DNA of 17,015 bases, taken from positions 1-17,015 of the IMG/VR virus record IMGVR_UViG_2737471853_000007. The stretch is one strand, 5' to 3'. Of this stretch, positions 1-17,015 are shown piece by piece. How positions within the stretch are numbered: position 1 is the first letter of the stretch; each line of letters starts with the position of its first letter. The translations under genes were made by a program, and so were the position numbers. The notes beneath the pieces are model-generated. The model was given only the letters and a program-made list of their open reading frames with translations. It was not told the DNA's origin and searched no databases. The DNA is from a virus. Lineage: Duplodnaviria > Heunggongvirae > Uroviricota > Caudoviricetes.

Positions 1-121
1 TATTATGCGGGATACTTACACGTCCATGTCTGATTTGAATAGACTGGTTCAGTACTTTTAATCTGGAAGTTTGTTATTTTTATTTGATTTGAAAAAGATG
101 CCATTGTAACCTCAACAATCC

Positions 122-760
122 TTGTTTCGAGTATTTATTATGATTGACTTCTTAAACCACATATTGCCTATATTATCTGCTATTGCATTCCCTATAGTTG
201 TGGTAGTAGTAACTCTTTATATAGTCTACAGAAGCGGAAGTACATCCATCATTGCTAATAAGATATGGGGGATATTCATTGGTGAGAAAAATTTCTTCAA
301 TGAAGAATTAGCATTAAAAGAAAAGGTTGAACATGATGTTGCTAAATTCAACTTTAAAGTAAATCTGAAAACCAGGAATCTCACTCAAATTGAACAATTT
401 TATAAATTTCTGGAAAAATTCGATCTGGATATAGATAACTTCAAAGGACTTCGTGACTGCTACTTGCCATCATTGCAGAAGGTCAAAAAAACATCTAAAA
501 GTGAAATATTTAATATTGGCCTGGTTGTCTTGTTAATAGGCGGTTTTTTGTTACCTATCTTCATTGGCGTGTTTATATTTAGAGACATTTCTACTTTCGA
601 CGGAGGGAAATTAGCAAATCTATTCTTTTATACGTTTTTGATTTCTGCCAGTACAGTTTTAAGTTTTAGTCAGTTACTTAGAAAGATTAAGTCAATCAGA
701 ACCCGTAAATTGATCTATAAAAAGAAATGCGAATATCTTGCAAACAGAAAGCCCATGTAG
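122..760 (+). CDS. Hypothetical membrane protein, about 3 predicted TM helices; candidate moron
   Basis: 212-aa ORF with hydrophobic stretches (ILPILSAIAFPIVVVVVTLYIVY; IGLVVLLIGGFLLPIFIGVFIF; LFFYTFLISASTVLSF) and a basic C-terminus. The track start is TTG at 122 with no clear SD; an in-frame ATG at 140 (MIDFLNH...) is an alternative start. Opposite strand to the structural operon and convergent on the tape measure gene. No recognisable family motif. Confidence 0.45.
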   Translation: MFRVFIMIDFLNHILPILSAIAFPIVVVVVTLYIVYRSGSTSIIANKIWGIFIGEKNFFNEELALKEKVEHDVAKFNFKVNLKTRNLTQIEQFYKFLEKFDLDIDNFKGLRDCYLPSLQKVKKTSKSEIFNIGLVVLLIGGFLLPIFIGVFIFRDISTFDGGKLANLFFYTFLISASTVLSFSQLLRKIKSIRTRKLIYKKKCEYLANRKPM

Positions 761-768
761 GGCTTTCT
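746..768. terminator. Putative bidirectional hairpin between convergent genes
   Basis: Perfect 9-bp inverted repeat AGAAAGCCC (746-754) / GGGCTTTCT (760-768) with a 5-nt loop, overlapping the stop of the + ORF and abutting the tape measure stop codon at 768-770. T-rich flank on the minus-strand side (TTTCTGTTTG). Confidence 0.45.
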
Positions 769-2978
769 TAAGTATTACGTCTCTGACTGCTTCTTACTGC
801 TTGTGTAACGCTGTTAGCATGCTTCTTCAACATTTCATTGAATTTCTTATCATCACCTGCAACGTCACCCTGAATGATTAAGGGAGCGTTAACGGTGATG
901 TCACCAGCAGTACTACCGCCTTTGTCCTGAGTATCGAGAAACTTAGTCAGCTTCTTGTTAGCTTCTGGCTGGACGACACGCTCACCGGCTTTCAGTACGA
1001 ATGATTTGTTATCGTACCCGGCAGGTAGCTCATCGACACCGCCGTGGAACTGCCCCGCATCAGCACCTTTTGCAGTACTGATAATGCTCAATCCAAGAGA
1101 GGCTACCTGTGCATAGTTCGCAAGGTTTTGAGGCCACGGCGTAGCAAGTGCCTGTGCAAGTGCGGATTGAATGCTTAGTACTGTCTGAGCTATCGTGATC
1201 CCACGTGAAACCATGAATGCCGCTTCGGCTGCACCCGACGATTCACCAAATGCGGCCACCATCGCCCCACTAAGGTTTTGTGCAGTATCTGAGAAGATTG
1301 TGAGTTGTTGCTGTGCATTCTGGTTACTGATATCAATGGCCTGAGCATTGTACTTTGCTGTTATCTGAGCCTTACGCTTTTCGTAGTCTTCATGACCTTT
1401 CAACAGTAAATCATTCTGTGCTAATTCAGCATTCATCGCGTCCTGATTATCATTCAGGCGTTGATCAGTATCATCATAAGCAAATGGATTACCACCATTG
1501 ATACGCTGATTTTGCTGTTGTGATAAGTACCCTTTCTGCTGATCATTTAGCAATCCAGAACTGATTAGAGAATTAGTATCTTTAAGACCTTGATTTGGAT
1601 CTGAATAGCCGACCATAGAATTAATTAGATCAGTACGTTGTTTAGCACCGGAAGTATTCGCATTCTTTAGCATTTCATCAGGATTAATACCGAGTACTTT
1701 AGCTGAATCAGTAATCGTTTTTAAAAGTGCCTTTTGCTGTCTGTCAAACTGCTGTAGGCGTACTTTAAAACCATCTTCCCCAACCTGAGCAAGAGCAGTT
1801 TCTAAATTACGTTGAGCCTGTAGCCGTTTTGCATCTGCCTGCTTTTGAGCTTGTTCTGCTTGCTTGTGTAACTGATCGGCTTTCTTCTGTGCATCTTCAC
1901 GCTGTTTGCCCTGATCTACCCAACCACCTTTAGGGGCTGTCACTGTAGCAATATCATTCTGAAAGTTGCTCACCAGACCTTCAAGATTCTTTTTAGCGTC
2001 GGCGTACTGGTTCCCCTTGCCGTTATCCATCGAGCCAGTATGAAGGGCTGCACCTTGATAGTTTAACGCCCCCGCCATGCGTAGCTTCTCCCAGATATCT
2101 AACATATCCTGTAGACTACCTTTGGATTCCTTTATACGTTGGTTAAGATCCTCAAATAATCCCGCCTCATGTGGCTTTTGATTGGCGGCATCATATACAC
2201 TGTTCATTGCATCAACTAAAGGTGAAAGGCCATCGGCGATAGTACCTTTAATATTAGTGGTTAGCTTAGTTAGATTCTTATCAAATTCCGCGTACTTTTC
2301 GGCTGCTTCATTAGTAACATCGGCGTTCTGTTGCTGGATATATGCAGTTGCATCTGCTTCATTATTGAACTGCTGTAAAGTACTAATCATATGAGATGAA
2401 TCACTTGCTAATGTTTCCATTACGTTGACAATTTCACCCTGAGATTTACCCGCATCACGCATAGCATAAAACGTATGAATAACGGCTTTCATACCGCCAT
2501 CAGTTTGTTTCAAGTACTTGTTATAGTCCTGTAGATTCAGGCCAAACTCTTTTAAATCATCAGACACGCCACCGCCAGCACGAAAGGCATCACCGAGTTT
2601 ATCTAAAGTATCCTTGTTAAAGTCTCCAAACTTATCCATTTCAAGACCAAGACCACTAAACGCCGATGATAGCTGTTGTAGCTGTACTACTGATAGACCA
2701 GTACTTTTACTGATTTCATTCATCTCGCGAACATACTCACGTGAAGACTGTACCAGTGCAGCAAGTCCACCAATACCAATAGCCGCAGCACCTGCAAGGC
2801 CAGTCATAGCAGTACTGAATCCGCCAGCCATCCCACTAAAGCGGCCTGTGAACTCTTCAACTACACCGCCAGCCTTACCACCAAATTCTTCTACTGCTTC
2901 AGTACCTTGCTGTAAAGCCCGCTGTAAGCCACCGGAATCACCGTCAATTTCTACACGGATTACATTATTCTTTGCCAT
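768..2978 (-). CDS. Phage tail tape measure protein
   Basis: 736-aa ORF directly downstream of the G/GT chaperone pair. Gly/Ala-rich hydrophobic N-terminal region (MAGGFSTAMTGLAGAAAIGIGGLAALV), long Q/A/K-rich low-complexity helical middle (QKKADQLHKQAEQAQKQADAKRLQAQRNLE), typical tape-measure composition and operon position. Confidence 0.8.
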   Translation of the reverse strand: MAKNNVIRVEIDGDSGGLQRALQQGTEAVEEFGGKAGGVVEEFTGRFSGMAGGFSTAMTGLAGAAAIGIGGLAALVQSSREYVREMNEISKSTGLSVVQLQQLSSAFSGLGLEMDKFGDFNKDTLDKLGDAFRAGGGVSDDLKEFGLNLQDYNKYLKQTDGGMKAVIHTFYAMRDAGKSQGEIVNVMETLASDSSHMISTLQQFNNEADATAYIQQQNADVTNEAAEKYAEFDKNLTKLTTNIKGTIADGLSPLVDAMNSVYDAANQKPHEAGLFEDLNQRIKESKGSLQDMLDIWEKLRMAGALNYQGAALHTGSMDNGKGNQYADAKKNLEGLVSNFQNDIATVTAPKGGWVDQGKQREDAQKKADQLHKQAEQAQKQADAKRLQAQRNLETALAQVGEDGFKVRLQQFDRQQKALLKTITDSAKVLGINPDEMLKNANTSGAKQRTDLINSMVGYSDPNQGLKDTNSLISSGLLNDQQKGYLSQQQNQRINGGNPFAYDDTDQRLNDNQDAMNAELAQNDLLLKGHEDYEKRKAQITAKYNAQAIDISNQNAQQQLTIFSDTAQNLSGAMVAAFGESSGAAEAAFMVSRGITIAQTVLSIQSALAQALATPWPQNLANYAQVASLGLSIISTAKGADAGQFHGGVDELPAGYDNKSFVLKAGERVVQPEANKKLTKFLDTQDKGGSTAGDITVNAPLIIQGDVAGDDKKFNEMLKKHANSVTQAVRSSQRRNT

Positions 2979-3674
2979 TCTTTTTCTTCCCTAAAACTTG
3001 AGTCTTAATTAACTCTCCTATTGATTTAATATCACTAGATTGTTTATCTTTTGATTTCTCTTTCCGTTCCTGTTCTTTTTCAGCAGTAGTTTTAGTACTG
3101 TCACCGAGTACATCCAGAAAATCAAAATCTTGTACTTTGATACTTTTCCTTGCTTCTGGTGTTATGTTCCCATTACTGATAGTAGTGTAATAACACTGGT
3201 ACGCATGTTTCATCATTTCAATCTGAGTACCGGATGGTTCAATAAAAGCATCGTAAATCATTAGCATATTGAGTACTTCAGGATCTAAGCTAAAGTACTC
3301 TTCTGGTGATAAGCCTCTTTTGTTAACCATCTTACAAAAGTACTTTAATTCGATATCACCCCTTACTTTTTTTCTACTTCATCCGTAGGATTTGAATCAT
3401 TTACGAGTTTGATAATTGCCGCGTATATTTCATTTTGAATGACAAAATCAATACTGTTTACATTAATGCGTCCATCAATATCTTCATCTGAAAAGATAGG
3501 ATCACCATTTTCATCTTTCGCACATAAGATTAGTGTTTGTGCAACATCAGTACATTTTGCAAAGTCTCTGCCATTTGGACGATGAATATAGATAGTTTCA
3601 CCTGCTACTTCGTAGGGTTGTAGTACTGGCTGTAGTTTCTTCATAAGCTGGTTTAAGTTCATTTGTTTCTCCAA
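2965..3674 (-). CDS. Tail assembly chaperone GT-like fusion product made by programmed -1 ribosomal frameshift (shift site at 3366-3372)
   Basis: The minus-strand mRNA at the end of the G ORF reads GAA AAA AAG TAA. The heptamer A AAA AAG (plus coordinates 3366-3372) is a classic -1 slippery site. The -1 frame is open from 3378 through the 121-aa ORF 2965-3330 (KK-VRGDIELKYFCK-MVNKRGLS...), which ends 14 bp inside the tape measure gene. Predicted fusion is about 236 aa. Confidence 0.7.
3363..3674 (-). CDS. Tail assembly chaperone (lambda gpG-like), zero-frame product
   Basis: 103-aa acidic ORF between the major tail protein and tape measure genes, ending in the slippery heptamer. Position and size match the conserved G/GT chaperone arrangement of long-tailed phages. 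Confidence 0.7.
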   Translation of the reverse strand: MEKQMNLNQLMKKLQPVLQPYEVAGETIYIHRPNGRDFAKCTDVAQTLILCAKDENGDPIFSDEDIDGRINVNSIDFVIQNEIYAAIIKLVNDSNPTDEVEKK

Positions 3675-3678
3675 TAAA

Positions 3679-3714
3679 AAAGGGAAAGTACAATACCTTC
3701 CCTTTATTTATTTT
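3679..3714 (-). terminator. Putative rho-independent terminator or attenuator downstream of the major tail protein gene
   Basis: Inverted repeat AAAGGGAA (3679-3686) / TTCCCTTT (3698-3705). On the minus-strand transcript the stem is followed by a U-run (TTTTTT then ATTGG). Lies in the 40-bp gap between the tail protein stop (3715) and the chaperone start (3674). Confidence 0.5.
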
Positions 3715-4179
3715 TTACTCACCAGTACCCGTAGTGATTAGACCTGAATCGATAGCAGCCCCATCTACAGCAAGTGTAAATGTCTTAGTTACTACTTCGT
3801 CTTTGTCACCACCGATAGTAGTACTTGAGACAAAGCACGTATAAACCACATAGAATCCGTTCTCTTTAGTAGCATCTTCAAAATAGCTTAGTTTGATTTG
3901 GCAACGCTTTTGATCATCTGCCAGTTGTTCTAATTTTTGGTGTACTGTGTTATCTGCAAGATAGTTAACCGCAAGTGAAATGTCAGGGATAGATTTAGTA
4001 CCCAATAGTTTACGGTCATATGCTGAGTTAAATGTTTTAACACTAATTACAGTACTTTCAAAACCAGAAGTAGTGAAGGTATTCACCTCTGGTACTTCTG
4101 CAAAATCAGTAGCAACGGTAGAACCCGCAGAACCTACCTCTACAGTAATATTAGCACCAGAAAAAATATCCATAGCCAT
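3715..4179 (-). CDS. Major tail (tube) protein, short form
   Basis: 154-aa ORF immediately upstream of the terminator and G/GT chaperones, the canonical position of the major tail protein. Strong SD (TATAAGGATATAAAAACT-ATG). Paralogous to the N-terminal 140 aa of the 946-aa ORF (shared MA(M)DIFSG and GDKD(E/Q)VVTK(T/S) motifs). Confidence 0.6.
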   Translation of the reverse strand: MAMDIFSGANITVEVGSAGSTVATDFAEVPEVNTFTTSGFESTVISVKTFNSAYDRKLLGTKSIPDISLAVNYLADNTVHQKLEQLADDQKRCQIKLSYFEDATKENGFYVVYTCFVSSTTIGGDKDEVVTKTFTLAVDGAAIDSGLITTGTGE

Positions 4180-4235
4180 AGTTTTTATATCCTTATATAA
4201 GTTTAATCGGGCAACGTCCTGTCACCCTTTTATAT

Positions 4236-7076
4236 TTATTTATTATCGATTAGTGATTGTACTAATACTTTCAAGTTTTCAATTTCAGTACTGAGATCAT
4301 CATTCATCTGTTTTAATGCTTTAATTGCGGCTAAACCATCTAACATCATTGGTGTTTCATCAAGATGGTACAGATCACCAACTTCTTTTACGTATTGTGG
4401 ATCTATATCCATAATCTGTTGTGAAACTACTCCACGGCGTGGTGTCTCGTCTTCATCAGATTTAAAAGTAAAGTTAACAAAGTCCATCCGAGAAATATTA
4501 TCAAGTGCAATATTGAGATCTAATGGTTCACCAATATCTTTGGCCCTTTCATCAGAGACAGCAGATGTAGTCAACTGTGCCCATGTTCCCCACGCCATAG
4601 CATTGGTTTGAACACGTGTATATATGCGATTGCTGGTGTCATAGAATCGCTGCTGATACCACTGGTTAGTAGTACCTGTGCCATTATAGTTCCCAGTGTT
4701 TAACCCTTGAGTTGCCTGAGTGAACAAAGACCCATATACGTTCGCAGCAGCACTCCCCGAAGGTGAGTTAGTCCATGAACCACCAACGGCACGCCATCCT
4801 TGAGCACCTATATTCATATCCGAACCGGAAGAATCGTATGATGTGCCATTAGGGGCAAGTCCTCCAGCAAGGCCAATGGGAGAACCATAGCCCGAAATTG
4901 GCGGTAGATATGCCCAACCCTGTCCAGTGACTGACCCAATCTTATCTCTGAAATAGAAAATAAGTCCCTTACCGGCTTCCTGGCTATTTTCAATTCTTAC
5001 CCGGCGACCTACCACATCATCACCACCACTAACATCTAAGTTGATTGCGGGCCAATCATCCCGCGATACCGTGAGTTGATTGCTGATCACTTGAGGTTGA
5101 TTGAACGTATTTGACCTGTCCAATGTCGGTACTTCATGCCACTGCCATTTACCACTGTTCAGTGATGGTTGTACGCCTCCAGCAAAGACACGATTACCAT
5201 CAGGCTGAACAAGCATTCCAGAATAAGACGGTGAACCATCATACTGTGATACAAAACCAGCACCGCCGAATGATGGAGGGGAATCAATAGTTGCTGTAGT
5301 CGTTCGAATGAACCCTTTCGGTGCATCCTTCATATCGGCAACATGGCGAGGATCTATTCCAAGCCCAACTTCTGATAGCGTCCTGTCAATTGAGTAAATT
5401 TGCTGTCCGTTCAACGTTGCTGCACTGGCTACTATTCCCAAAGTACCTTTGCCTGTTGCTGTTTCGCCACCCGATGCAAACAGACGTACATCAAAATCGT
5501 TACCAGTACCGGAACTATGCATATCAAGGAATGTCAGTACTGCCGTAGTACTACTACCCAGCTCAATACCCCTTGAAGTGGTTGAGTTGCTTCCAATAGC
5601 AATAGATCCGTTGAAGTTCTGCCCCCCATCCCATGTATTGGTAGCGTTGAGCAAAGGTACAGTACCGCCAGATGTACCAACGTTTACCGTCGCAGCCGTA
5701 CCAAGTCCAAGATTCGTTCTTGCCGCCGCAGCCGTGGTCGCTCCAGTACCGCCACTCGTTAGGGGTAATGCAGTAGAAAGGGTTAAGGTCGATAACGTCG
5801 CCTGACCGCCTGTGATAGCGACTGCGTTAGAGTTCTGCACCGCAAGGGAACCTAAACCGAGATTAGTACGGGAAGTGACAATATTATTAAGGTCTGCAAG
5901 ATTACTTGCGATCTTTAGCTGTGCGTCATTAGTAACGTTAGATAAACCAACATCGGCTTTAGTTACTGTCACATTGGATGATAATGCATGACCGTTTACT
6001 GTGATTGTTTTAGGAACCAAATCTGTATTAACATGAGTAGTTAATGTATTAATTGAATTATTAACCTCATCAATATCGCTATCAATTTGTTCTTTCGAAT
6101 ACACATCCAGATTAGTACGGGCAATTTCATTATCAGCGATATCGGCTAAATTACTGATAACTTTTAACTGAGCATCATTAGTGACATTTTCTAATTGAAT
6201 ATCTTGTTTTGTAAGTACTACATCGCTTGAAAGCTCATGACCATTAACGGTACGCTCGACGGGTACAGAACCGGTGTCAGTACTGGTTAATGTAATGTCT
6301 GCTGTTAGTGCTTTACCGTTGACGGTTCGCGTGAGAGGAACATAACGTGCGTCCATCTGTGTAGCCGTGTAGATACGAGTCCATGCCGTGGTGGCATTTT
6401 TTGCGAATAGGCTTAGTGTGCCTGTTTTTGTCATCGCAAATTCAGCAACGCTCGAACCGTCGACAAGCCCTATGCCCATCATATCGGCCCCAGCAGGATT
6501 ACCCTGTTGTGTTGACGGTATTTTGATAAAGCTGTTACCCGTTGGTGTGACTGGTGCGTACTGCGGTATACCAGTAGTGTTAGCACCTACGCCGTAATCC
6601 CCCTGATAGACAGGAAGAAGTGCAGCCATTGTCATTACACGGGCAACTACATCAGCAGGTGTAAAAGAATAGGATTTAGTAACTACCTGATCCTTATCCC
6701 CGGATAATTGAGTACCCGTAACGTAACCATTGACGATGGCATAAGTGATCTGACTTTCTTCTAAATCTAATTGATACTGAATAATGACCTGAAATACAGA
6801 TTGTGATTCAGCCATTTCATCTAAGAATTGGTGCGTAGGATCATCAGGTAAGTATGCAACCACAATATCAAATGGTTCTACTGATTTATCAGATAGTAGT
6901 ACTGTCTTGTACTCATTATCATAGGTTTCAAAATTATTTGTTTCTGACTGGATGGTTAGAGCAGGAAATTCAGTTACATTATTAATAGTAACATTGCCTA
7001 TGCCCTGTGGTGAACGGTTTCCAGTGTCCGTATTATATTGTAAAGTTAATCCCTTACCTGAAAAAATGTCGGCCAT
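4236..7076 (-). CDS. Tail fiber-like protein: N-terminal major-tail-protein-like domain, tandem fiber repeats, C-terminal intramolecular chaperone (peptidase S74-like) domain
   Basis: 946-aa ORF. Residues 1-140 are homologous to the 154-aa tail protein. The middle has tandem repeats (ERTVNGHELSSDVVLTKQDIQLENVTNDAQLKVISNLAD / TITVNGHALSSNVTVTKADVGLSNVTNDAQLKIASNLAD; RTNLGLG twice) and Gly/Ser/Thr-rich fiber-like sequence. The C-terminus (SAVSDERAKDIGEPLDLNIALDNISRMDFVNFTFKS...) matches the Ser-x4-Lys autoproteolytic chaperone module of tail fibers and endosialidases, followed by a coiled-coil tail. Confidence 0.8.
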   Translation of the reverse strand: MADIFSGKGLTLQYNTDTGNRSPQGIGNVTINNVTEFPALTIQSETNNFETYDNEYKTVLLSDKSVEPFDIVVAYLPDDPTHQFLDEMAESQSVFQVIIQYQLDLEESQITYAIVNGYVTGTQLSGDKDQVVTKSYSFTPADVVARVMTMAALLPVYQGDYGVGANTTGIPQYAPVTPTGNSFIKIPSTQQGNPAGADMMGIGLVDGSSVAEFAMTKTGTLSLFAKNATTAWTRIYTATQMDARYVPLTRTVNGKALTADITLTSTDTGSVPVERTVNGHELSSDVVLTKQDIQLENVTNDAQLKVISNLADIADNEIARTNLDVYSKEQIDSDIDEVNNSINTLTTHVNTDLVPKTITVNGHALSSNVTVTKADVGLSNVTNDAQLKIASNLADLNNIVTSRTNLGLGSLAVQNSNAVAITGGQATLSTLTLSTALPLTSGGTGATTAAAARTNLGLGTAATVNVGTSGGTVPLLNATNTWDGGQNFNGSIAIGSNSTTSRGIELGSSTTAVLTFLDMHSSGTGNDFDVRLFASGGETATGKGTLGIVASAATLNGQQIYSIDRTLSEVGLGIDPRHVADMKDAPKGFIRTTTATIDSPPSFGGAGFVSQYDGSPSYSGMLVQPDGNRVFAGGVQPSLNSGKWQWHEVPTLDRSNTFNQPQVISNQLTVSRDDWPAINLDVSGGDDVVGRRVRIENSQEAGKGLIFYFRDKIGSVTGQGWAYLPPISGYGSPIGLAGGLAPNGTSYDSSGSDMNIGAQGWRAVGGSWTNSPSGSAAANVYGSLFTQATQGLNTGNYNGTGTTNQWYQQRFYDTSNRIYTRVQTNAMAWGTWAQLTTSAVSDERAKDIGEPLDLNIALDNISRMDFVNFTFKSDEDETPRRGVVSQQIMDIDPQYVKEVGDLYHLDETPMMLDGLAAIKALKQMNDDLSTEIENLKVLVQSLIDNK
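5847..6335 (-). repeat. Intragenic tandem repeats (TVNG(K/H) fiber repeats) inside the tail fiber gene
   Basis: Three diverged copies are visible at DNA and protein level: the RTVNGKAL copy near 6314-6336, the ERTVNGHEL copy near 6241-6261 and the TITVNGHAL copy near 5991-6012. Each of the last two is followed by an NVTNDAQLK(V/I) block, and the region ends with RTNLGLGS at 5847-5870. Confidence 0.55.
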
Positions 7077-7093
7077 TTTATATCCTTATAGCG

Positions 7094-7486
7094 TTATCTT
7101 GTTTTCTCCGTAACTTGAATATTTATCGTGAATGATAAAGAAACCGAGCCAGTTATAGGGTCTGTTACGATATCGGATTGTTCATATGAGTAAGAGAGAA
7201 TGATTAAATCAGCATCCTTGAAAGCACGTGCTTTCTCATTATCAAAAGTACTGATAATCTGATCATAAGTAATTGACGGTGCAGTATTACCTGATTCTGG
7301 TTTTGGACTAATCAAGTACTGAATAGCAAAGTTACCTGCTTGTCTCTGCCCTCCAAAAGAAATTGAAGACAATGAGTAATCAAATGCTATCTGTTCAAAT
7401 ACATCTGCATCACGTGATACTGTTAGATTCTTAGTTGCGTTGATTAGTTGTTTCATTGTCTGGCGTACTTTCTGTACTAACATCAT
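7094..7486 (-). CDS. Hypothetical phage neck / tail-completion protein (position-based)
   Basis: The track ORF starts at 7564 and overlaps the upstream gene by 77 bp. An in-frame ATG-ATG at 7481-7486 lies 1 nt after the upstream stop (TAA at 7488-7490), giving a coupled about 130-aa product (MMLVQKVRQTMKQ...). No family motif recognised; the role is inferred only from its position between capsid and tail genes. Confidence 0.45.
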   Translation of the reverse strand: MMLVQKVRQTMKQLINATKNLTVSRDADVFEQIAFDYSLSSISFGGQRQAGNFAIQYLISPKPESGNTAPSITYDQIISTFDNEKARAFKDADLIILSYSYEQSDIVTDPITGSVSLSFTINIQVTEKTR

Positions 7487-7487
7487 A

Positions 7488-7811
7488 TTAGTAGTCCTCT
7501 GCAAATGAAGCACCAGCAGAAGTACGAAAGTAGCAATTAACCATACCTGACAGATCATCTTCAATATTATAAATTGTTTGGTTTACACCATCGATGATCA
7601 GTACTGTACCGATATCTATATCAGTATTAACTAAATCATCCTTTCTCATTGTTACGTATGTTTCTGTACTTTCGATAAATCCACCTGCCGCTTCAATAGA
7701 AACGGGAAGTACTTCTACAATTCCAGTAAAAGTACTTCCCGTAGAAGTTTGGATTAATTGACCGAAAGCATTTAGAAACGTATCTTGTTGACCGTTAGAA
7801 AATGCTCTCAT
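7488..7811 (-). CDS. Hypothetical head-tail connector / head completion protein (position-based)
   Basis: 107-aa ORF immediately downstream of the capsid gene (stop 7817, start 7811), tightly packed in the operon. No recognisable motif. Confidence 0.45.
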   Translation of the reverse strand: MRAFSNGQQDTFLNAFGQLIQTSTGSTFTGIVEVLPVSIEAAGGFIESTETYVTMRKDDLVNTDIDIGTVLIIDGVNQTIYNIEDDLSGMVNCYFRTSAGASFAEDY

Positions 7812-7816
7812 AGTTA

Positions 7817-11638
<3,822 letters not shown>

Positions 11639-11641
11639 TTA

Positions 11642-14009
<2,368 letters not shown>

Positions 14010-14023
14010 TTATTGAGATCACT

Positions 14024-14587
14024 ATGTCAGACCGCAACAATGATTTTTCTTTGCTGGTAAAGTTACTGAATAGCTTCCTAAAGAATGAAGATATAAAGAG
14101 GCGTCTGTATTCCTTCGTCAGTAATGAAACTAATGATTGGGAAAAATGGCTACAAATTGAATTTGAGCACTTCCTTAACAAAAAAAGAAAATATGAAGTT
14201 AAACGTGAAGTTACAGCTTTTCTTGACCCTAATAATTTCCCTGCAAGCAAGCTCTCAAAAATCGATATAATAATGAGAGAAAAAGATACCCTTTTTGAAG
14301 ACTATATCTTTATTGAGCTGAAATGTACTAAGCGTTCATCTGCCTTAAAAAGAGGATTGCAAGCAGACCATTTGAAACTCAACTCTATACAAGAATGTAA
14401 GTATCCGATGCGAAATTCTTTCTGTGTTGGTTTTCATTTATATTGCTCATCATCTGTAGTTGAAGAAATGGACAAGTATGTAACCGATACCCTTAAAGGA
14501 TCTTATGCAGTATTCAAATTATGCGAATGTCCGACAAACCGTCATTGCGATTGTGCGTTAAATGAAATAGGTGTTGTACTTTGCTAA
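14024..14587 (+). CDS. Hypothetical small protein with PD-(D/E)xK-like nuclease motif and C-terminal Cys cluster
   Basis: 187-aa ORF divergent from terS with only 38 bp between start codons. Candidate catalytic motif E (QIEFEH) ... D (SKIDIIM) ... ExK (IFIELKC) with restriction-endonuclease-like spacing. C-terminal CxC...HCDC cluster. No AGTACT hexamer, unlike the phage operon. Confidence 0.5.
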   Translation: MSDRNNDFSLLVKLLNSFLKNEDIKRRLYSFVSNETNDWEKWLQIEFEHFLNKKRKYEVKREVTAFLDPNNFPASKLSKIDIIMREKDTLFEDYIFIELKCTKRSSALKRGLQADHLKLNSIQECKYPMRNSFCVGFHLYCSSSVVEEMDKYVTDTLKGSYAVFKLCECPTNRHCDCALNEIGVVLC

Positions 14588-14676
14588 GTGCGGTGCGGGA
14601 AGCTATCTAAACTTCACACATAACTTAAAGAATCCGGTGCCGAAAACTCGCGTTCTAAGCTGGGCTGCCGGAGTAC

Positions 14677-14760
14677 CTTAATTAGTAATTTAACTTAATT
14701 AGCTTGCTTAAAAATACTTACATTCTATTTTACATTAGCATTATTACAATGTTATATTAA
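14677..14760 (+). promoter_or_regulatory. Putative promoter/operator region upstream of the DUF3800 gene
   Basis: 9-bp direct repeat CTTAATTAG at 14677-14685 and 14693-14701, immediately upstream of a -35-like TTGCTT (14704-14709) and a -10-like TATTTT about 16 bp downstream. The AT-rich context makes the exact promoter assignment uncertain. Confidence 0.3.
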
Positions 14761-14766
14761 TAGCAC

Positions 14767-15921
14767 ATGCACATTGTAGCTCATAAAGGAATGACCAAAT
14801 TGGTAAAGAATGTATATTTCGATGAATCAGGATTCACTGGTAATAACTTACTTTCAAAAGATCAGCCTTTTTTTAGTTACGCAGCAGTCGTGACTGATGA
14901 TGAGGAAAGTAAACAGTTTGTTGATTATATAATAAACAAGTACTCGATCGCAGCCGAAGAGCTAAAAGGTAGCACTCTCGTAAATAGCAAGAGATTTCAA
15001 CCAGCCGTAGATGAAATACTTAATCATTTCCGTGGTCGTATGCGTGTGGTTGTAAACGAAAAAAAATATGCCCTCTCAGGAAAATTCTTCGAATATATTT
15101 TTGAGCCAGTATTAGCAGCTAAAAGCTCAATTTTTTACAACCTTAAATTTCACCTATTCATCTCAAATATAATGTATTTTTCTTTAATAGCTAAGGATGA
15201 ATATTCAGAACTATTACATTCGCGATTTGAAGATTTTTCACGAGGTAAAATATTGGTTAATAGTTTTATCGAACCAGTTGTTGGTTCTAAAAATTCTGAA
15301 ATTATGATGGACATTCATGATTTCGCCAAGAATAACATCTCTATAATTGAAGAAGAATATGAAGGCCTTGAGGGTACTGGGATTGATAAGTGGTTATTAG
15401 ATTTGACAACGACTTCTCTTTATAATCTCCTGTGCGATATGAGTAGTAAGTTTGGTACATTGAGAGCTATATGCGACAGCTCAAAACCATTAATTACTCA
15501 TCAGGACTCATTCAATGAGATGATAGGCAATGATGAGATTGTGTTCGAGACTTTTCATGATAAAAAAATCCCGATCACATTTAAGCTATCTGAGCCAATG
15601 ATTCTTTCTGATTCTAAAGTCACGCATGGTATACAAATTGCGGATGTGGTAGCTGCGGCTAGCATTTATGTCCTTAACAAGAAAAAATCGAAAGAAAAAT
15701 ATCATTCTAAATGGCTAAATCATTTTGAAGATGAGATTTTTTATTGGCAGTGCTGTGTTGTTCCCACACCAGAAAACCTTGACCCTAAAAATGTTAACAA
15801 CCATTTAAATAGATATATTTTGCAAGAAATTGCAGAGCGAAGCAGAAACTCAACTCCTGTTTTAGATGATATTGAGAAGGATATAATAAGAATTTCCAGA
15901 ACATTAGCCATGCTACGTTGA
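14767..15921 (+). CDS. DUF3800-family protein (function unknown)
   Basis: 384-aa ORF with both signature motifs recalled for DUF3800: N-terminal DES (VYFDESGFTG) and C-terminal QxxD (THGIQIADVVAAA), within the family length range. The start is uncertain: the ATG at 14767 has no SD, and the alternatives are ATG at 14791 or in-frame TTG at 14800, 9 nt after AAAGGA. Confidence 0.75.
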   Translation: MHIVAHKGMTKLVKNVYFDESGFTGNNLLSKDQPFFSYAAVVTDDEESKQFVDYIINKYSIAAEELKGSTLVNSKRFQPAVDEILNHFRGRMRVVVNEKKYALSGKFFEYIFEPVLAAKSSIFYNLKFHLFISNIMYFSLIAKDEYSELLHSRFEDFSRGKILVNSFIEPVVGSKNSEIMMDIHDFAKNNISIIEEEYEGLEGTGIDKWLLDLTTTSLYNLLCDMSSKFGTLRAICDSSKPLITHQDSFNEMIGNDEIVFETFHDKKIPITFKLSEPMILSDSKVTHGIQIADVVAAASIYVLNKKKSKEKYHSKWLNHFEDEIFYWQCCVVPTPENLDPKNVNNHLNRYILQEIAERSRNSTPVLDDIEKDIIRISRTLAMLR

Positions 15922-15931
15922 AATATATATT

Positions 15932-15961
15932 CTCATGCTGTTTTATCAATAACAGCATGAG
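15932..15961. terminator. Putative bidirectional hairpin between convergent DUF3800 and lipoprotein genes
   Basis: 11-bp perfect inverted repeat CTCATGCTGTT (15932-15942) / AACAGCATGAG (15951-15961) with an 8-nt loop, 11 bp after the DUF3800 stop. Flanks are AT-rich on both sides. Confidence 0.5.
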
Positions 15962-16033
15962 GGTATTATATATTATTTAATTTTTCATCATGCCACATAC
16001 ACTTAATAATTCTATCTCTTTGATTTTTGTTTA

Positions 16034-16306
16034 TTATCTATATTGATGCATTTTTTTAATTCTTTCCTCTCGTATATGGCATGTAGTACTGCCATTGTCC
16101 ACCTGGTAAATCGGATTGTAGGTGCGGCCACAATCACTCTGGAACTGAGGCCGGTAGTACTTCACCCCGTTTCGTGTGCCAGCGTCGAACAGTACTATTG
16201 TAGCCTTGTTATCAACGTTGCCGACAAAGGCTTTATCCATGAATGAGTGATGTACGCTGCCGCAGCCTGTGAGCAGTACTACCAACATGACGATTAGTAT
16301 TTTCAT
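16034..16306 (-). CDS. Small lipoprotein (signal peptide with lipobox LTGC)
   Basis: The track ORF starts at 16342, but the internal ATG at 16306 gives MKILIVMLVVLLTGCGS..., a classic lipoprotein signal peptide with lipobox. SD AGGGA lies about 9 nt upstream, and the start is 10 bp after the upstream gene stop (TAG at 16317-16319). Mature part is about 70 aa with two further Cys. Confidence 0.6.
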   Translation of the reverse strand: MKILIVMLVVLLTGCGSVHHSFMDKAFVGNVDNKATIVLFDAGTRNGVKYYRPQFQSDCGRTYNPIYQVDNGSTTCHIREERIKKMHQYR

Positions 16307-16316
16307 TGTTATATCC

Positions 16317-16826
16317 CTATAGAAGTTGTTCGCATTGTTCAAAGCGGATTGGCCTGTACTCTCCCTGTACTGCCCATACCCCCGACTCTCGTAAAATCCT
16401 GTGATTTCGATTGCTGCTGACTTGTACGATCACCTTGTCGCAGTACTGCATGATGTTATTGATGAGTACCGGGAAGATCAGCCGCTCTATGTGTTCTTCA
16501 GTGAACCGTCTATTTAGTCGAACTAAGTCGTAACCGTCCGTTAGCAGTGGTTCAGCAGCCATGTACCGTATGAATGGTAGATCTTCATAGCGTGTACCTG
16601 TGCCAGTACTGAGCACGCACAACAGCCCCTTTTCTTTGAACCATGCGGCTTTACCCTGAATCATTCTTAACTGGTTCTGATAGACCACGTGACGGATATA
16701 TTCACTTTCTTTTCCTGCCCCCATCAGTACCTGGCAACCGTTTATCAGTACACGGGTTTCCAGCTCTACGCCGAGTAACATACCGTCCAATGAAGTGATC
16801 GGAATTGCCCAATGTTCGAGTTTCAT
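16317..16826 (-). CDS. Hypothetical protein with degenerate EAL-like (YdiV-like) features
   Basis: 169-aa ORF. LLGVELETRVL resembles the EAL signature region (E. coli YdiV: LVGVELITHF, as recalled), LSTGTGTRYEDL resembles the DDFGTGYSS region, and C-terminal VWAVQGEY resembles the QGY(LF) motif. It is shorter than a full EAL domain, so the assignment is weak. Confidence 0.35.
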   Translation of the reverse strand: MKLEHWAIPITSLDGMLLGVELETRVLINGCQVLMGAGKESEYIRHVVYQNQLRMIQGKAAWFKEKGLLCVLSTGTGTRYEDLPFIRYMAAEPLLTDGYDLVRLNRRFTEEHIERLIFPVLINNIMQYCDKVIVQVSSNRNHRILRESGVWAVQGEYRPIRFEQCEQLL

Positions 16827-16950
16827 GTTGATCTCTCAGTTGTCATAACTGATTGATAATTGATCATTTTTAACCATTGATCAAATTAAAATGATCGATA
16901 ATTACATTTCTACCGTTTTTAGTGGTAAGTATTTTGATGGCTGGATCTGT
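16827..16950 (-). promoter_or_regulatory. GATC-rich upstream region with repeated TTGATCA-like motifs
   Basis: Five GATC sites in about 120 bp (16830-16833, 16862-16865, 16879-16882, 16893-16896, 16944-16947), embedded in repeated ATTGAT(C)A motifs (GATTGATAATTGATCATTTTTAACCATTGATCAAATTAAAATGATCGATAATT) directly upstream of the start codon at 16826. Confidence 0.3.
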
Positions 16951-17015
16951 GCGAAATGTGATGCAATACTGTATGGATAACCAGTATTAATGTAGTGTAA
17001 ATAGACCCGTTTTAG

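Follow-up and report, generated by a model that had tools for sequence, protein, structure and literature searches.

The stretch of DNA that concerns us here, called the window throughout, is the 17,015 nucleotides (positions 1 to 17,015) of IMG/VR record IMGVR_UViG_2737471853_000007, from a tailed virus of the class Caudoviricetes. It belongs to an element, a prophage of ~32 kb and ~39% GC from a temperate siphovirus lineage of Enterobacteriaceae, and it is saturated with one short palindrome, AGTACT, whose anatomy, spread and possible cause are the subject of this article. Judged by its family matches, the minus strand of the window reads as a lambda-like siphovirus module, from terminase to tape measure. 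The genes and other open reading frames (ORFs) are listed below with the number of AGTACT sites that each holds.

1..104, minus strand: 5' end of the next tail gene (185 amino acids, aa), which runs off the window; contains the AGTACT at 51-56; gene call L075:12875-13432, mapped through a 99.9%-identical composite
122..760, plus strand: putative accessory ORF DUF6216 (Pfam PF19723, E = 1.3e-21); 0 AGTACT, 2 GTAC; 32% GC
768..2978, minus strand: tape measure protein (phrog_13674, E = 8e-87); 8 sites
2965..3330, minus strand: probable tail assembly chaperone extension, called on position only, with no family match; 3 sites
3363..3674, minus strand: tail assembly chaperone (phrog_344); 1 site
3715..4179, minus strand: major tail protein (phrog_158, E = 5e-19); 2 sites
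4236..7076, minus strand: 946-aa protein whose N-terminus resembles a major tail protein, followed by a fibre region and an S74 chaperone domain (phrog_158 at residues 1-152, phrog_1980, PF13884); 6 sites
7094..7811, minus strand: two small head-tail connector ORFs (156 aa, 107 aa; weak PF05354 match); 5 sites
7817..9643, minus strand: prohead protease fused to major capsid protein (phrog_617, E = 1e-80; PF04586, PF05065); 5 sites
9591..11099, minus strand: portal protein (phrog_21, E = 1e-72); 5 sites
11099..11629, minus strand: head-tail joining protein (phrog_5774); 1 site
11642..13531, minus strand: large terminase, GpA type (phrog_15, E = 1e-116); 11 sites, the richest long gene
13437..13985, minus strand: small terminase (phrog_57); 2 sites
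14024..14587, plus strand: accessory ORF orf187 (187 aa) in a variable slot, no family match; 0 AGTACT; 34% GC
14767..15921, plus strand: accessory DUF3800 gene (PF12686, phrog_12991); 1 site (14939)
16034..16826, minus strand: two small early or late-regulatory ORFs (102 aa, 169 aa); 6 sites; 43-47% GC

The genes at 3715-4179 and 4236-7076 are two neighbouring major-tail-protein genes, the second of which ends in a Peptidase_S74 intramolecular chaperone domain; this fusion of tail-protein-like, fibre and S74 parts suggests a tail tube subunit that displays a fibre. The frames of the small (TerS) and large (TerL) terminases overlap by 95 nt (13437-13531). TerL is 540, 573, 587, 595, 617 or 629 aa long in different assemblies, and its true start is uncertain.

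AGTACT and its half-sites

An earlier note on this DNA, made by eye, had counted some 55-60 copies of AGTACT against about 6 expected. The exact count is 57, against a mean of 5.0 (standard deviation 2.3, maximum 10) in 200 dinucleotide-preserving shuffles, and the excess is real. No hexamer is more frequent in the window, and among 6-bp palindromes AGTACT alone is conspicuous, at 11.3-fold, with CACGTG second at 3.1-fold. The sites start at the following positions.

First half: 51, 909, 1074, 1177, 1693, 2379, 2513, 2700, 2811, 3094, 3272, 3294, 3339, 3622, 3820, 4051, 4287, 5536, 5547, 6214, 6279, 6898, 7247, 7315, 7600, 7708, 7731, 8241, 8856
Rest: 8903, 9353, 9447, 9928, 10178, 10440, 10882, 11031, 11489, 11741, 11948, 11990, 12410, 12743, 12941, 13158, 13287, 13323, 13337, 13488, 13711, 14939, 16085, 16156, 16191, 16275, 16442, 16605

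The densest cluster puts three sites in 56 bp at the TerS/TerL junction (13287..13342). Quasi-periodic or helical-phase spacing was not found, nor any 10.5- or 11-bp signal, in the window; the coefficient of variation (CV) of the spacing is 0.88, against 0.99 +/- 0.09 under random placement. The note had put almost all of the sites in the minus-strand genes. That stands, with 56 of the 57 in core genes, but the site at 51-56 has to be added to them, being also genic and part of the next minus-strand tail gene.

Protein coding does not account for the excess. A synonymous-codon shuffle within each gene leaves both the proteins and the codon usage of the gene intact; it expects 12.9 +/- 3.2 AGTACT (maximum 25 in 1000) where 55 are observed (z = 13), and a codon-order shuffle expects 6.5 +/- 2.5 against the same 55. 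Taken by reading frame, the observed and synonymous-shuffle counts are 28/6.7, 6/1.3 and 21/4.9, a uniform excess of ~4.3-fold. The AGTACT excess is therefore a DNA-level effect and not a codon-pair effect. The earlier note had said as much on the strength of sites falling in different frames, and it had called the frames correctly: in gene 768-2978, sites 909 and 1074 are in frame 0 (AGT-ACT, Ser-Thr) and sites 1177 and 1693 in frame 2 (xxA-GTA-CTx, Val-Leu). It had named a codon-aware model as the place where the ratio of observed to expected might fall to about 1, and there the excess survives. The proteins themselves carry a trace of the motif: Ser-Thr dipeptides number 49 against 26 expected, 28 of the 49 being written AGTACT, and Val-Leu dipeptides 38 against 26, with 30 of the 38 written GTACTN. 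A third-order Markov model expects 29.4 AGTACT in the window and a fourth-order model 55.3; the latter match does not refute the excess and merely places the signal in the pentamers AGTAC and GTACT.

It is in these pentamers that the anatomy of the motif becomes clear. The window holds 94 AGTAC and 93 GTACT, or 187 AGTAC half-sites over both strands, and the two are the highest-ranked pentamers of the element at 5.6-fold. Sorting GTAC by its number of A-flanks (zero, one or two) gives observed/expected ratios of 1.04, 3.13 and 11.3 for the window; the whole element has 1.12, 3.12 and 11.7, and a set of 13 diverse relatives has 1.15, 2.88 and 8.4. Independent flanks predict 55.3 AGTACT in the window and 2978 in the pooled relatives, where 57 and 3123 are observed. 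Each half-site is thus ~3.3-fold enriched and the two are independent, and the overlapping pair AGTACT is therefore ~11-fold enriched. The half-site takes no account of transcription (58 sense, 55 antisense in the element). What is enriched and selected is the pentamer 5'-AGTAC-3', asymmetric and counted on either strand, rather than the palindrome in its own right, and here the earlier proposal of a palindromic site under selection has to be revised: selection at the DNA level holds, the unit does not. All of the information in the motif is confined to 8 bp, the GTAC core with positions -2 and -1 on each side. A stands at position -1 with a frequency of 0.58 and G is rarest there. At position -2, C is preferred and G disfavoured; C is found at this position of GTAC in E. 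coli DNA too (0.36), so that only position -1 is specific to the phage.

A prophage lineage and its sites

Walking outward from both ends of the window gave a 36-kb composite that is 99.9% identical to it. The element is integrated, via a serine recombinase, between yeaG/prkA and mipA in Enterobacteriaceae. It runs from the large serine recombinase by yeaG/prkA through a hypervariable early region, the structural module and the lysis genes to a conserved right-end module by mipA, made up of a GIY-YIG protein, three small ORFs and a 236-aa methyltransferase. Across the right-end loci (L075 19488-22211, L078-L105) the SegE-like GIY-YIG nuclease is present in 27/31, the 186-aa ORF in 27/31, the 103-aa ORF in 18/31, the 96-aa ORF in 27/31 and the methyltransferase, whose gene carries 4 AGTACT, in 30/31. 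Some copies have a variable, low-GC, motif-free pair of ORFs (235 aa, 69 aa) on the opposite strand just before the methyltransferase, a layout that resembles a controller-plus-nuclease cassette.

A megablast search of the window against deposited phages returned no match, and the closest TerL among them, by tblastn, is 35% identical. The lineage is nevertheless well populated. In all 68 TerL relatives (62-100% amino-acid identity) AGTACT is the top 6-bp palindrome, at 2.9-15.6-fold, and one sub-lineage of relatives reaches 17-18-fold. The relatives have a GC content of 36-44% (36-42% for the element) and live in high-GC hosts (50-57%), among them Buttiauxella, Pluralibacter, Enterobacter, Scandinavium, Pseudescherichia, Citrobacter and Klebsiella; every known host of the lineage falls within Enterobacterales. 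The earlier note had left it open whether the signature belonged to the phage or to its host. A 50-kb sample of E. coli chromosome is neutral (4 AGTACT against 5.0 expected, 120 GTAC against 115, probability of a 5'-A 0.24), and at the E. coli locus ~21 kb of host flank holds 1 AGTACT against ~59 inside the element. A host signature is rejected on these counts, and the excess is a property of the phage lineage.

Some features of individual copies and relatives are recorded here. One copy in E. coli (L069; NZ_CP123310.1, 2144337-2190265) is a degraded copy between mipA and yeaG with TerL in fragments, interrupted by IS3, IS5, ISSen4 and a group II intron with reverse transcriptase; the inserted mobile DNA is almost without AGTACT, and the mosaic of native and foreign DNA is visible from the motif alone. 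In a relative (L064 10001-12407) a 98%-identical TerL match covers residues 1-352 only and yet spans 2.4 kb of DNA, which implies that the terminase gene is probably interrupted by an insertion (intron, intein or IS). An early protein of 166 aa (L071 5304-5804) resembles large HNH homing endonucleases in their non-catalytic C-terminal portion only (phrog_953 positions 227-371 of 420) and may be a stand-alone DNA-binding domain.

The three plus-strand ORFs of the window (122-760, 14024-14587, 14767-15921) hold 0, 0 and 1 AGTACT, as first noted by eye. At the density of the minus-strand genes they should hold 9.3 (P = 0.001), and their GTAC are short as well, 7 against 25 expected (P = 2e-5). 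DUF6216 and orf187 have a GC content of 0.32-0.34 against 0.40 for the core, and DUF3800, like orf187, lies below core GC. It had been proposed that all three were recent acquisitions. For DUF3800 this is right, because only 3/47 relatives carry the gene, at 93-100% identity; a second copy, 87.6% identical, sits elsewhere in the chromosome of E. coli G3/10. For orf187, found in 19/47 relatives at 27-100% identity and the occupant of a variable slot, it is right in part. The motif has a practical use in that it cleanly separates the native genes of the element from recently acquired cargo and host DNA.

Are the sites kept? We compared their retention with that of frame-matched control hexamers over TerL, portal, capsid and two smaller genes. 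At 78-85% nucleotide identity retention of AGTACT is 0.53 against 0.32 for the controls, and AGTACT is kept more often than the controls at every level of divergence; these comparisons lack phylogenetic independence, but all bins point the same way. When only contexts with identical amino acids are counted, retention is 0.63-0.73 against 0.28-0.41, with a gap that grows with divergence, and sites at synonymous positions are kept 1.5-2.6x more often than control hexamers in relatives down to 60% nucleotide identity. In a codon alignment of TerL, the window has sites at 10 columns and the relatives, taken together, at 26. The sites are constrained while their exact positions turn over, a pattern consistent with selection for site density and not for particular positions.

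Superimposed on this enrichment is ordinary restriction avoidance. In the pooled relatives GGTACC (24 against 235 expected) and CGTACG (11 against 109) have each been purged about tenfold, whereas TGTACA is neutral (364 against 378). AGTACT itself is purged in a few sub-lineages. In one relative (L090) GTAC with one A-flank stands at 4.1-fold and with two at 1.2-fold, the palindrome numbering 4 against 15.9 expected (P = 0.0004), which confirms the half-site as the selected unit. Because such relatives purge the palindrome and keep the half-site enriched, AGTACT seems to be exposed to restriction in some hosts. The window has other compositional gaps: there is a strong shortage of CTAG (7 against ~55 expected), A-tracts remain scarce when judged by the codon-aware null (AAAAAA 7 against 23.8, AAATTT 2 against 10.9), and more than 25 six-base palindromes are wholly absent, including AAGCTT, CAGCTG, CTGCAG, GAGCTC, GGATCC and GTGCAC.

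The same signature in unrelated jumbo phages

When IMG/VR was scanned for triplets of closely set AGTACT, a Klebsiella jumbo phage came up, vB_KleM_RaK2, whose 345,809-bp genome holds 937 AGTACT. The agreement with the prophage is close on the following measures: AGTACT is at 11.9-fold in RaK2 and 11.3-fold in the window, GTAC at 2.8- and 2.9-fold, and the AGTAC pentamer at 5.5-fold in RaK2 and 5.6-fold in the element. The probability of a 5'-A given GTAC is 0.59 in RaK2 and 0.595 in the window (0.58-0.59 for the two lineages), CAGTACTG makes up 26% of the sites in RaK2 and 21% in the element, and CGTACG is absent from both RaK2 and the window. The A-flank series in RaK2 runs 1.19, 2.79 and 11.9, and the half-site occurs 366 times sense and 314 times antisense. 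In its long ORFs a synonymous shuffle expects 83 +/- 7.8 AGTACT where 261 are observed, with enrichment in all frames. The relatives of RaK2 share the signature (121Q 9.8-fold, GAP32 11.4-fold, Munch 9.0-fold, Hallingskeid 12.3-fold), and the jumbo clade keeps it on E. coli, Klebsiella, Cronobacter, Salmonella and Erwinia.

These RaK2-like phages (Alcyoneusvirus, Asteriusvirus and Mimasvirus: RaK2, K64-1, 121Q, GAP32, Munch, Hallingskeid) have the same motif, flank preferences and strength as the prophage, but they are unrelated lytic myoviruses of ~350 kb, and GGTACC is not avoided in RaK2, unlike in the prophage lineage. By tblastn and phmmer, what the element and RaK2 have in common is limited to a lysozyme, a tail-fibre domain and the weak similarity of a 174-aa protein to RaK2 ORF075; the 174-aa protein was considered as the driver and rejected, being present in only 3/33 prophage relatives. 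RaK2 also encodes a C5-cytosine methylase and its own tRNA-Ser and tRNA-Thr. The paper that describes its genome makes no mention of an AGTACT motif (PMC3622015).

RaK2 puts the motif to one use that we looked for in the prophage and did not find there. At its early sigma70-type promoters pairs of AGTACT stand exactly 20 bp apart, as AGTACTTGACA-N11-CAGTACTGTATAAT, abutting the -35 and -10 elements. At least 12 early promoters (L214, RaK2 226990-238059) share this ~40-bp architecture, which looks like an operator pair for some regulator. Restriction avoidance in RaK2 is extreme and coexists with the AGTACT excess: over the whole genome (L229, L232-L237) at least 14 six-base palindromes expected 2-30 times have no copy, including CTGCAG, GCATGC, AGGCCT, CCTAGG and GAGCTC, and GCGC is absent from the first 50 kb (L229).

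The signature is not a general feature of low-GC coliphages, since T4, RB49 and the Klebsiella T4-like phage KP15 are without enrichment. RB49 goes further, with no AGTACT, GGTACC or CGTACG between 50 and 100 kb (L230), where 8.7, 5.1 and 7.6 are expected. GATC stands at 1.5x its expectation in RB49 and at 2.1x in KP15 (L241, 100-112 kb), the latter with GGATCC and CGATCG at ~4x; here too a phage may be enriching the target of a methylase. A second IMG/VR scan gave no further lineage enriched across its genome, only local clusters in high-GC contigs, and most other hits were repeat-protein artefacts (L150, L162, L174). One cluster, in a viral contig of 62% GC (L292, 11396-11665), packs 13 AGTACT into 270 bp of intergenic DNA immediately beyond the 3' end of a primase-helicase ORF (Prim-Pol/PriCT-2/AAA_25; 11688-13619, minus strand), and looks like origin iterons or operators built on AGTACT.

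What might read AGTAC, and what it resembles

The core genome is shaped by a persistent, lineage-specific pressure at the DNA level that favours AGTAC on either strand, overrides codon choice and shifts dipeptide content. Two unrelated lineages at the same strength, with hosts that are neutral, suggest that phage DNA interacts with some protein in a way that is strong, specific and so far unrecognised. On the widest reading, to which we give a probability of about 0.35, some DNA-marking, DNA-binding or counter-defence system that has yet to be described targets AGTAC, and genomes have been saturated with this site separately in at least two unrelated phage lineages of Enterobacterales. The mechanism that we favour would make AGTAC the recognition site of a sequence-specific protein acting on double-stranded DNA, with a short, enzyme-like footprint; all the motif information lies within 8 bp. 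The phage would benefit from a high density of sites, which would serve as a genome-wide mark of its own DNA, and the reader would be a DNA-acting protein encoded by the phage. That a phage-encoded reader is responsible for the enrichment is a view we hold tentatively, at somewhat short of even odds.

The only conserved non-structural candidate in the element is the 236-aa protein encoded outside the window, at the mipA-proximal end. It has an invariant GAFFTP, a motif I (ELCAGIG) and a motif IV (NPPFG), and with motif I ahead of motif IV on a Rossmann fold in an AlphaFold model (predicted local distance difference test, pLDDT, 85) it is a candidate gamma-class N6-adenine-type methyltransferase with DNA as its predicted substrate. 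The gamma-class DNA adenine methylases lmo1582, MmeI, HsdM and M.TaqI align with it over 204-208 residues and PglX is also named among its structural relatives; the top structural match is an rRNA methylase, and some homologues match Pfam MTS (PF05175). In profile searches the FFTP region weakly matches EcoR124 HsdM (E = 0.025) and motif IV matches M.TaqI. Enzymes of the MmeI, PglX and HsdM type as a rule recognise asymmetric 5-6-mers on each strand separately, a habit that would suit AGTAC half-sites that are independent. There is a viral precedent in ml_135 of Mollivirus, an orphan methylase specific for AGTACT (bioRxiv 10.1101/2019.12.21.884833). As one part of the case for a phage-encoded reader, the identification of that reader with the methyltransferase is doubtful, and the link of the enzyme to AGTAC is possible but weak.

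Several results weigh against this mechanism, some of them against the enzyme in particular. RB49 has a full-length, 54%-identical homologue of the methyltransferase, yet none of the 8.7 AGTACT expected and GTAC at 0.8-fold; RaK2 has the full signature without a homologue; and a relative with a truncated methyltransferase (L033/L108) is still at 8-fold AGTACT. With distant homologues in high-GC contigs added to the first two, the presence of the gene is contradicted as a predictor of enrichment. No separate target-recognition domain is visible in the model. Because GGTACC, which a GTAC adenine methylase should protect, is avoided tenfold, the GTAC adenines would appear to be unprotected when the phage enters a new host. 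More generally, when gene presence or absence among the relatives was set against motif strength no gene tracked it, and the early region is hypervariable; the same strength in two unrelated lineages argues for a shared external reader or for convergence, not for a gene of the element's own; and the fitness rationale for a high density of sites is itself hypothetical.

That external reader could be a host protein, conserved across Enterobacterales, which binds or acts at AGTAC or AGTACT and which some AT-rich phages recruit, titrate or evade by accumulating sites. Such a protein would explain how two lineages without a shared specific gene arrive at the same parameters (AGTACT 11.3- and 11.9-fold, AGTAC 5.6- and 5.5-fold) and how the jumbo clade keeps its signature over five host genera, and in RaK2 the motif abuts promoters that are read by host polymerase. 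T4, RB49 and KP15, however, infect the same hosts without the signature, and the host chromosome is neutral for AGTACT. The one known host protein with an AGTACT core in its site, the nucleoid-occlusion factor SlmA, is excluded on its flanks: against its consensus, which we take to be GTGAGTACTCAC (GTG...CAC around the core), there are 0 matches within 1 mismatch, GAGTACTC occurs at 0/113 sites, and G is the rarest base at -1. Besides SlmA we know of no candidate host protein, and we regard a host reader as unlikely.

Biased mismatch repair or gene conversion of the Vsr/Dcm kind that acts on CCWGG might instead keep converting near-cognates into AGTAC without any selection for function. The independent, multiplicative half-sites are what strand-by-strand repair would be expected to give, HNH and GIY-YIG nucleases are abundant in both lineages, and RaK2 encodes a C5-cytosine methylase. 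Transition neighbours are mildly depleted, with AGTATT/AATACT at 0.77 of the codon-aware expectation (small counts), TAGTAT at 0 against 6.0 and ATAC at 65 against 97, but this is weak next to an 11-fold enrichment, and other neighbours are at ~1.0. The Vsr effect in E. coli is itself modest, which counts against such a drive here. Pfam, NCBIfam and PHROGs searches found no Vsr-like gene or C5-methylase in the element, several late-region ORFs of the composite lying outside the search, and the purge of AGTACT in L090 beside a half-site at 4.1-fold would go unexplained unless selection also acted. We consider repair drive less probable again than a host reader.

A compositional fossil, inherited from a former low-GC host or left as a passive side-effect of purging other palindromes, would suit the low GC of the element beside that of its hosts and the very many 6-bp palindromes that are absent. 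It is largely refuted, and highly improbable, given the active conservation of sites at synonymous positions, which extends to relatives of 60% nucleotide identity, the lack of enrichment of other W-S-W-W-S-W palindromes in the window (AGATCT 1.2-fold, TCATGA 1.3-fold, TGTACA 0.3-fold) and a host range wholly within Enterobacterales. A by-product of translation, through codon usage, codon-pair or dipeptide preferences (AGT-ACT Ser-Thr, GTA-CTN Val-Leu) and perhaps tRNA supply, has a next to negligible chance: AGT, ACT and GTA are indeed preferred Ser, Thr and Val codons and RaK2 has the two tRNAs, but a codon or dipeptide artefact is refuted by both shuffles, by the same control in RaK2 and by the strand symmetry of the half-site. 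Whatever probability these explanations leave over belongs to something not yet conceived.

We found no description in the literature of AGTACT or AGTAC enrichment in phages. Phages usually avoid short palindromes as restriction targets, and here one of them is the commonest hexamer, 11-fold enriched at a cost to codon and amino-acid choice. Restriction-site avoidance in phage genomes is known (PMC6286503) and also acts on this lineage, against GGTACC, CGTACG and, in L090, AGTACT, but the main finding is its opposite, a restriction-type palindrome enriched 11-fold. We would place the motif among the iterated functional oligomers, where it is unusual in being phage-borne, in running against palindrome avoidance and in recurring in unrelated lineages. 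If the interaction behind it were identified, it could prove to be a new epigenetic self-mark, a new way to evade or exploit a host system, or a repair drive.

Among iterated oligomers, Chi, DUS/USS and KOPS are like AGTAC in that a short word is held at high density by additive selection while its positions turn over. They are 7-12 nt long, strand-biased, enriched in the host and read by known host machines, whereas AGTAC is strand-symmetric and phage-specific. A Chi-like function through real Chi sites is rejected, as the element holds 1 Chi site. The CCWGG of E. coli is closer in another respect. Its over-representation, a small effect, is attributed to Dcm together with very-short-patch repair by Vsr, and it is likewise a methylase target over-represented in coding DNA by a DNA-level process that is independent of translation; that system needs an m5C methylase and a Vsr endonuclease, neither of which was found among the element proteins searched.

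The closest analogy is HIP1 (GCGATCGC), the highly iterated palindrome of cyanobacteria (PMC4390886, PMC5861425). Like AGTACT, it is a hyper-abundant short palindrome beyond Markov and codon expectations, found in all frames and conserved above background, with a candidate orphan methylase and a function that is unresolved. The differences are instructive. HIP1 belongs to host chromosomes and cyanophages acquire it secondarily, whereas AGTACT belongs to phages whose host is neutral. Unlike HIP1, the phage motif has an asymmetric pentamer as its unit, and independent half-sites give rise to the palindrome; quasi-periodic spacing, a HIP-like trait, is not seen (CV 0.88); and the putative link to a methylase is partly contradicted by RB49 and RaK2. 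If the widest reading is true, phages would have their own version of the HIP1 problem of cyanobacteria, set in genetically testable systems: RaK2, 121Q and GAP32 are cultured and the prophage is present in sequenced isolates, so the question can be put directly to the test.

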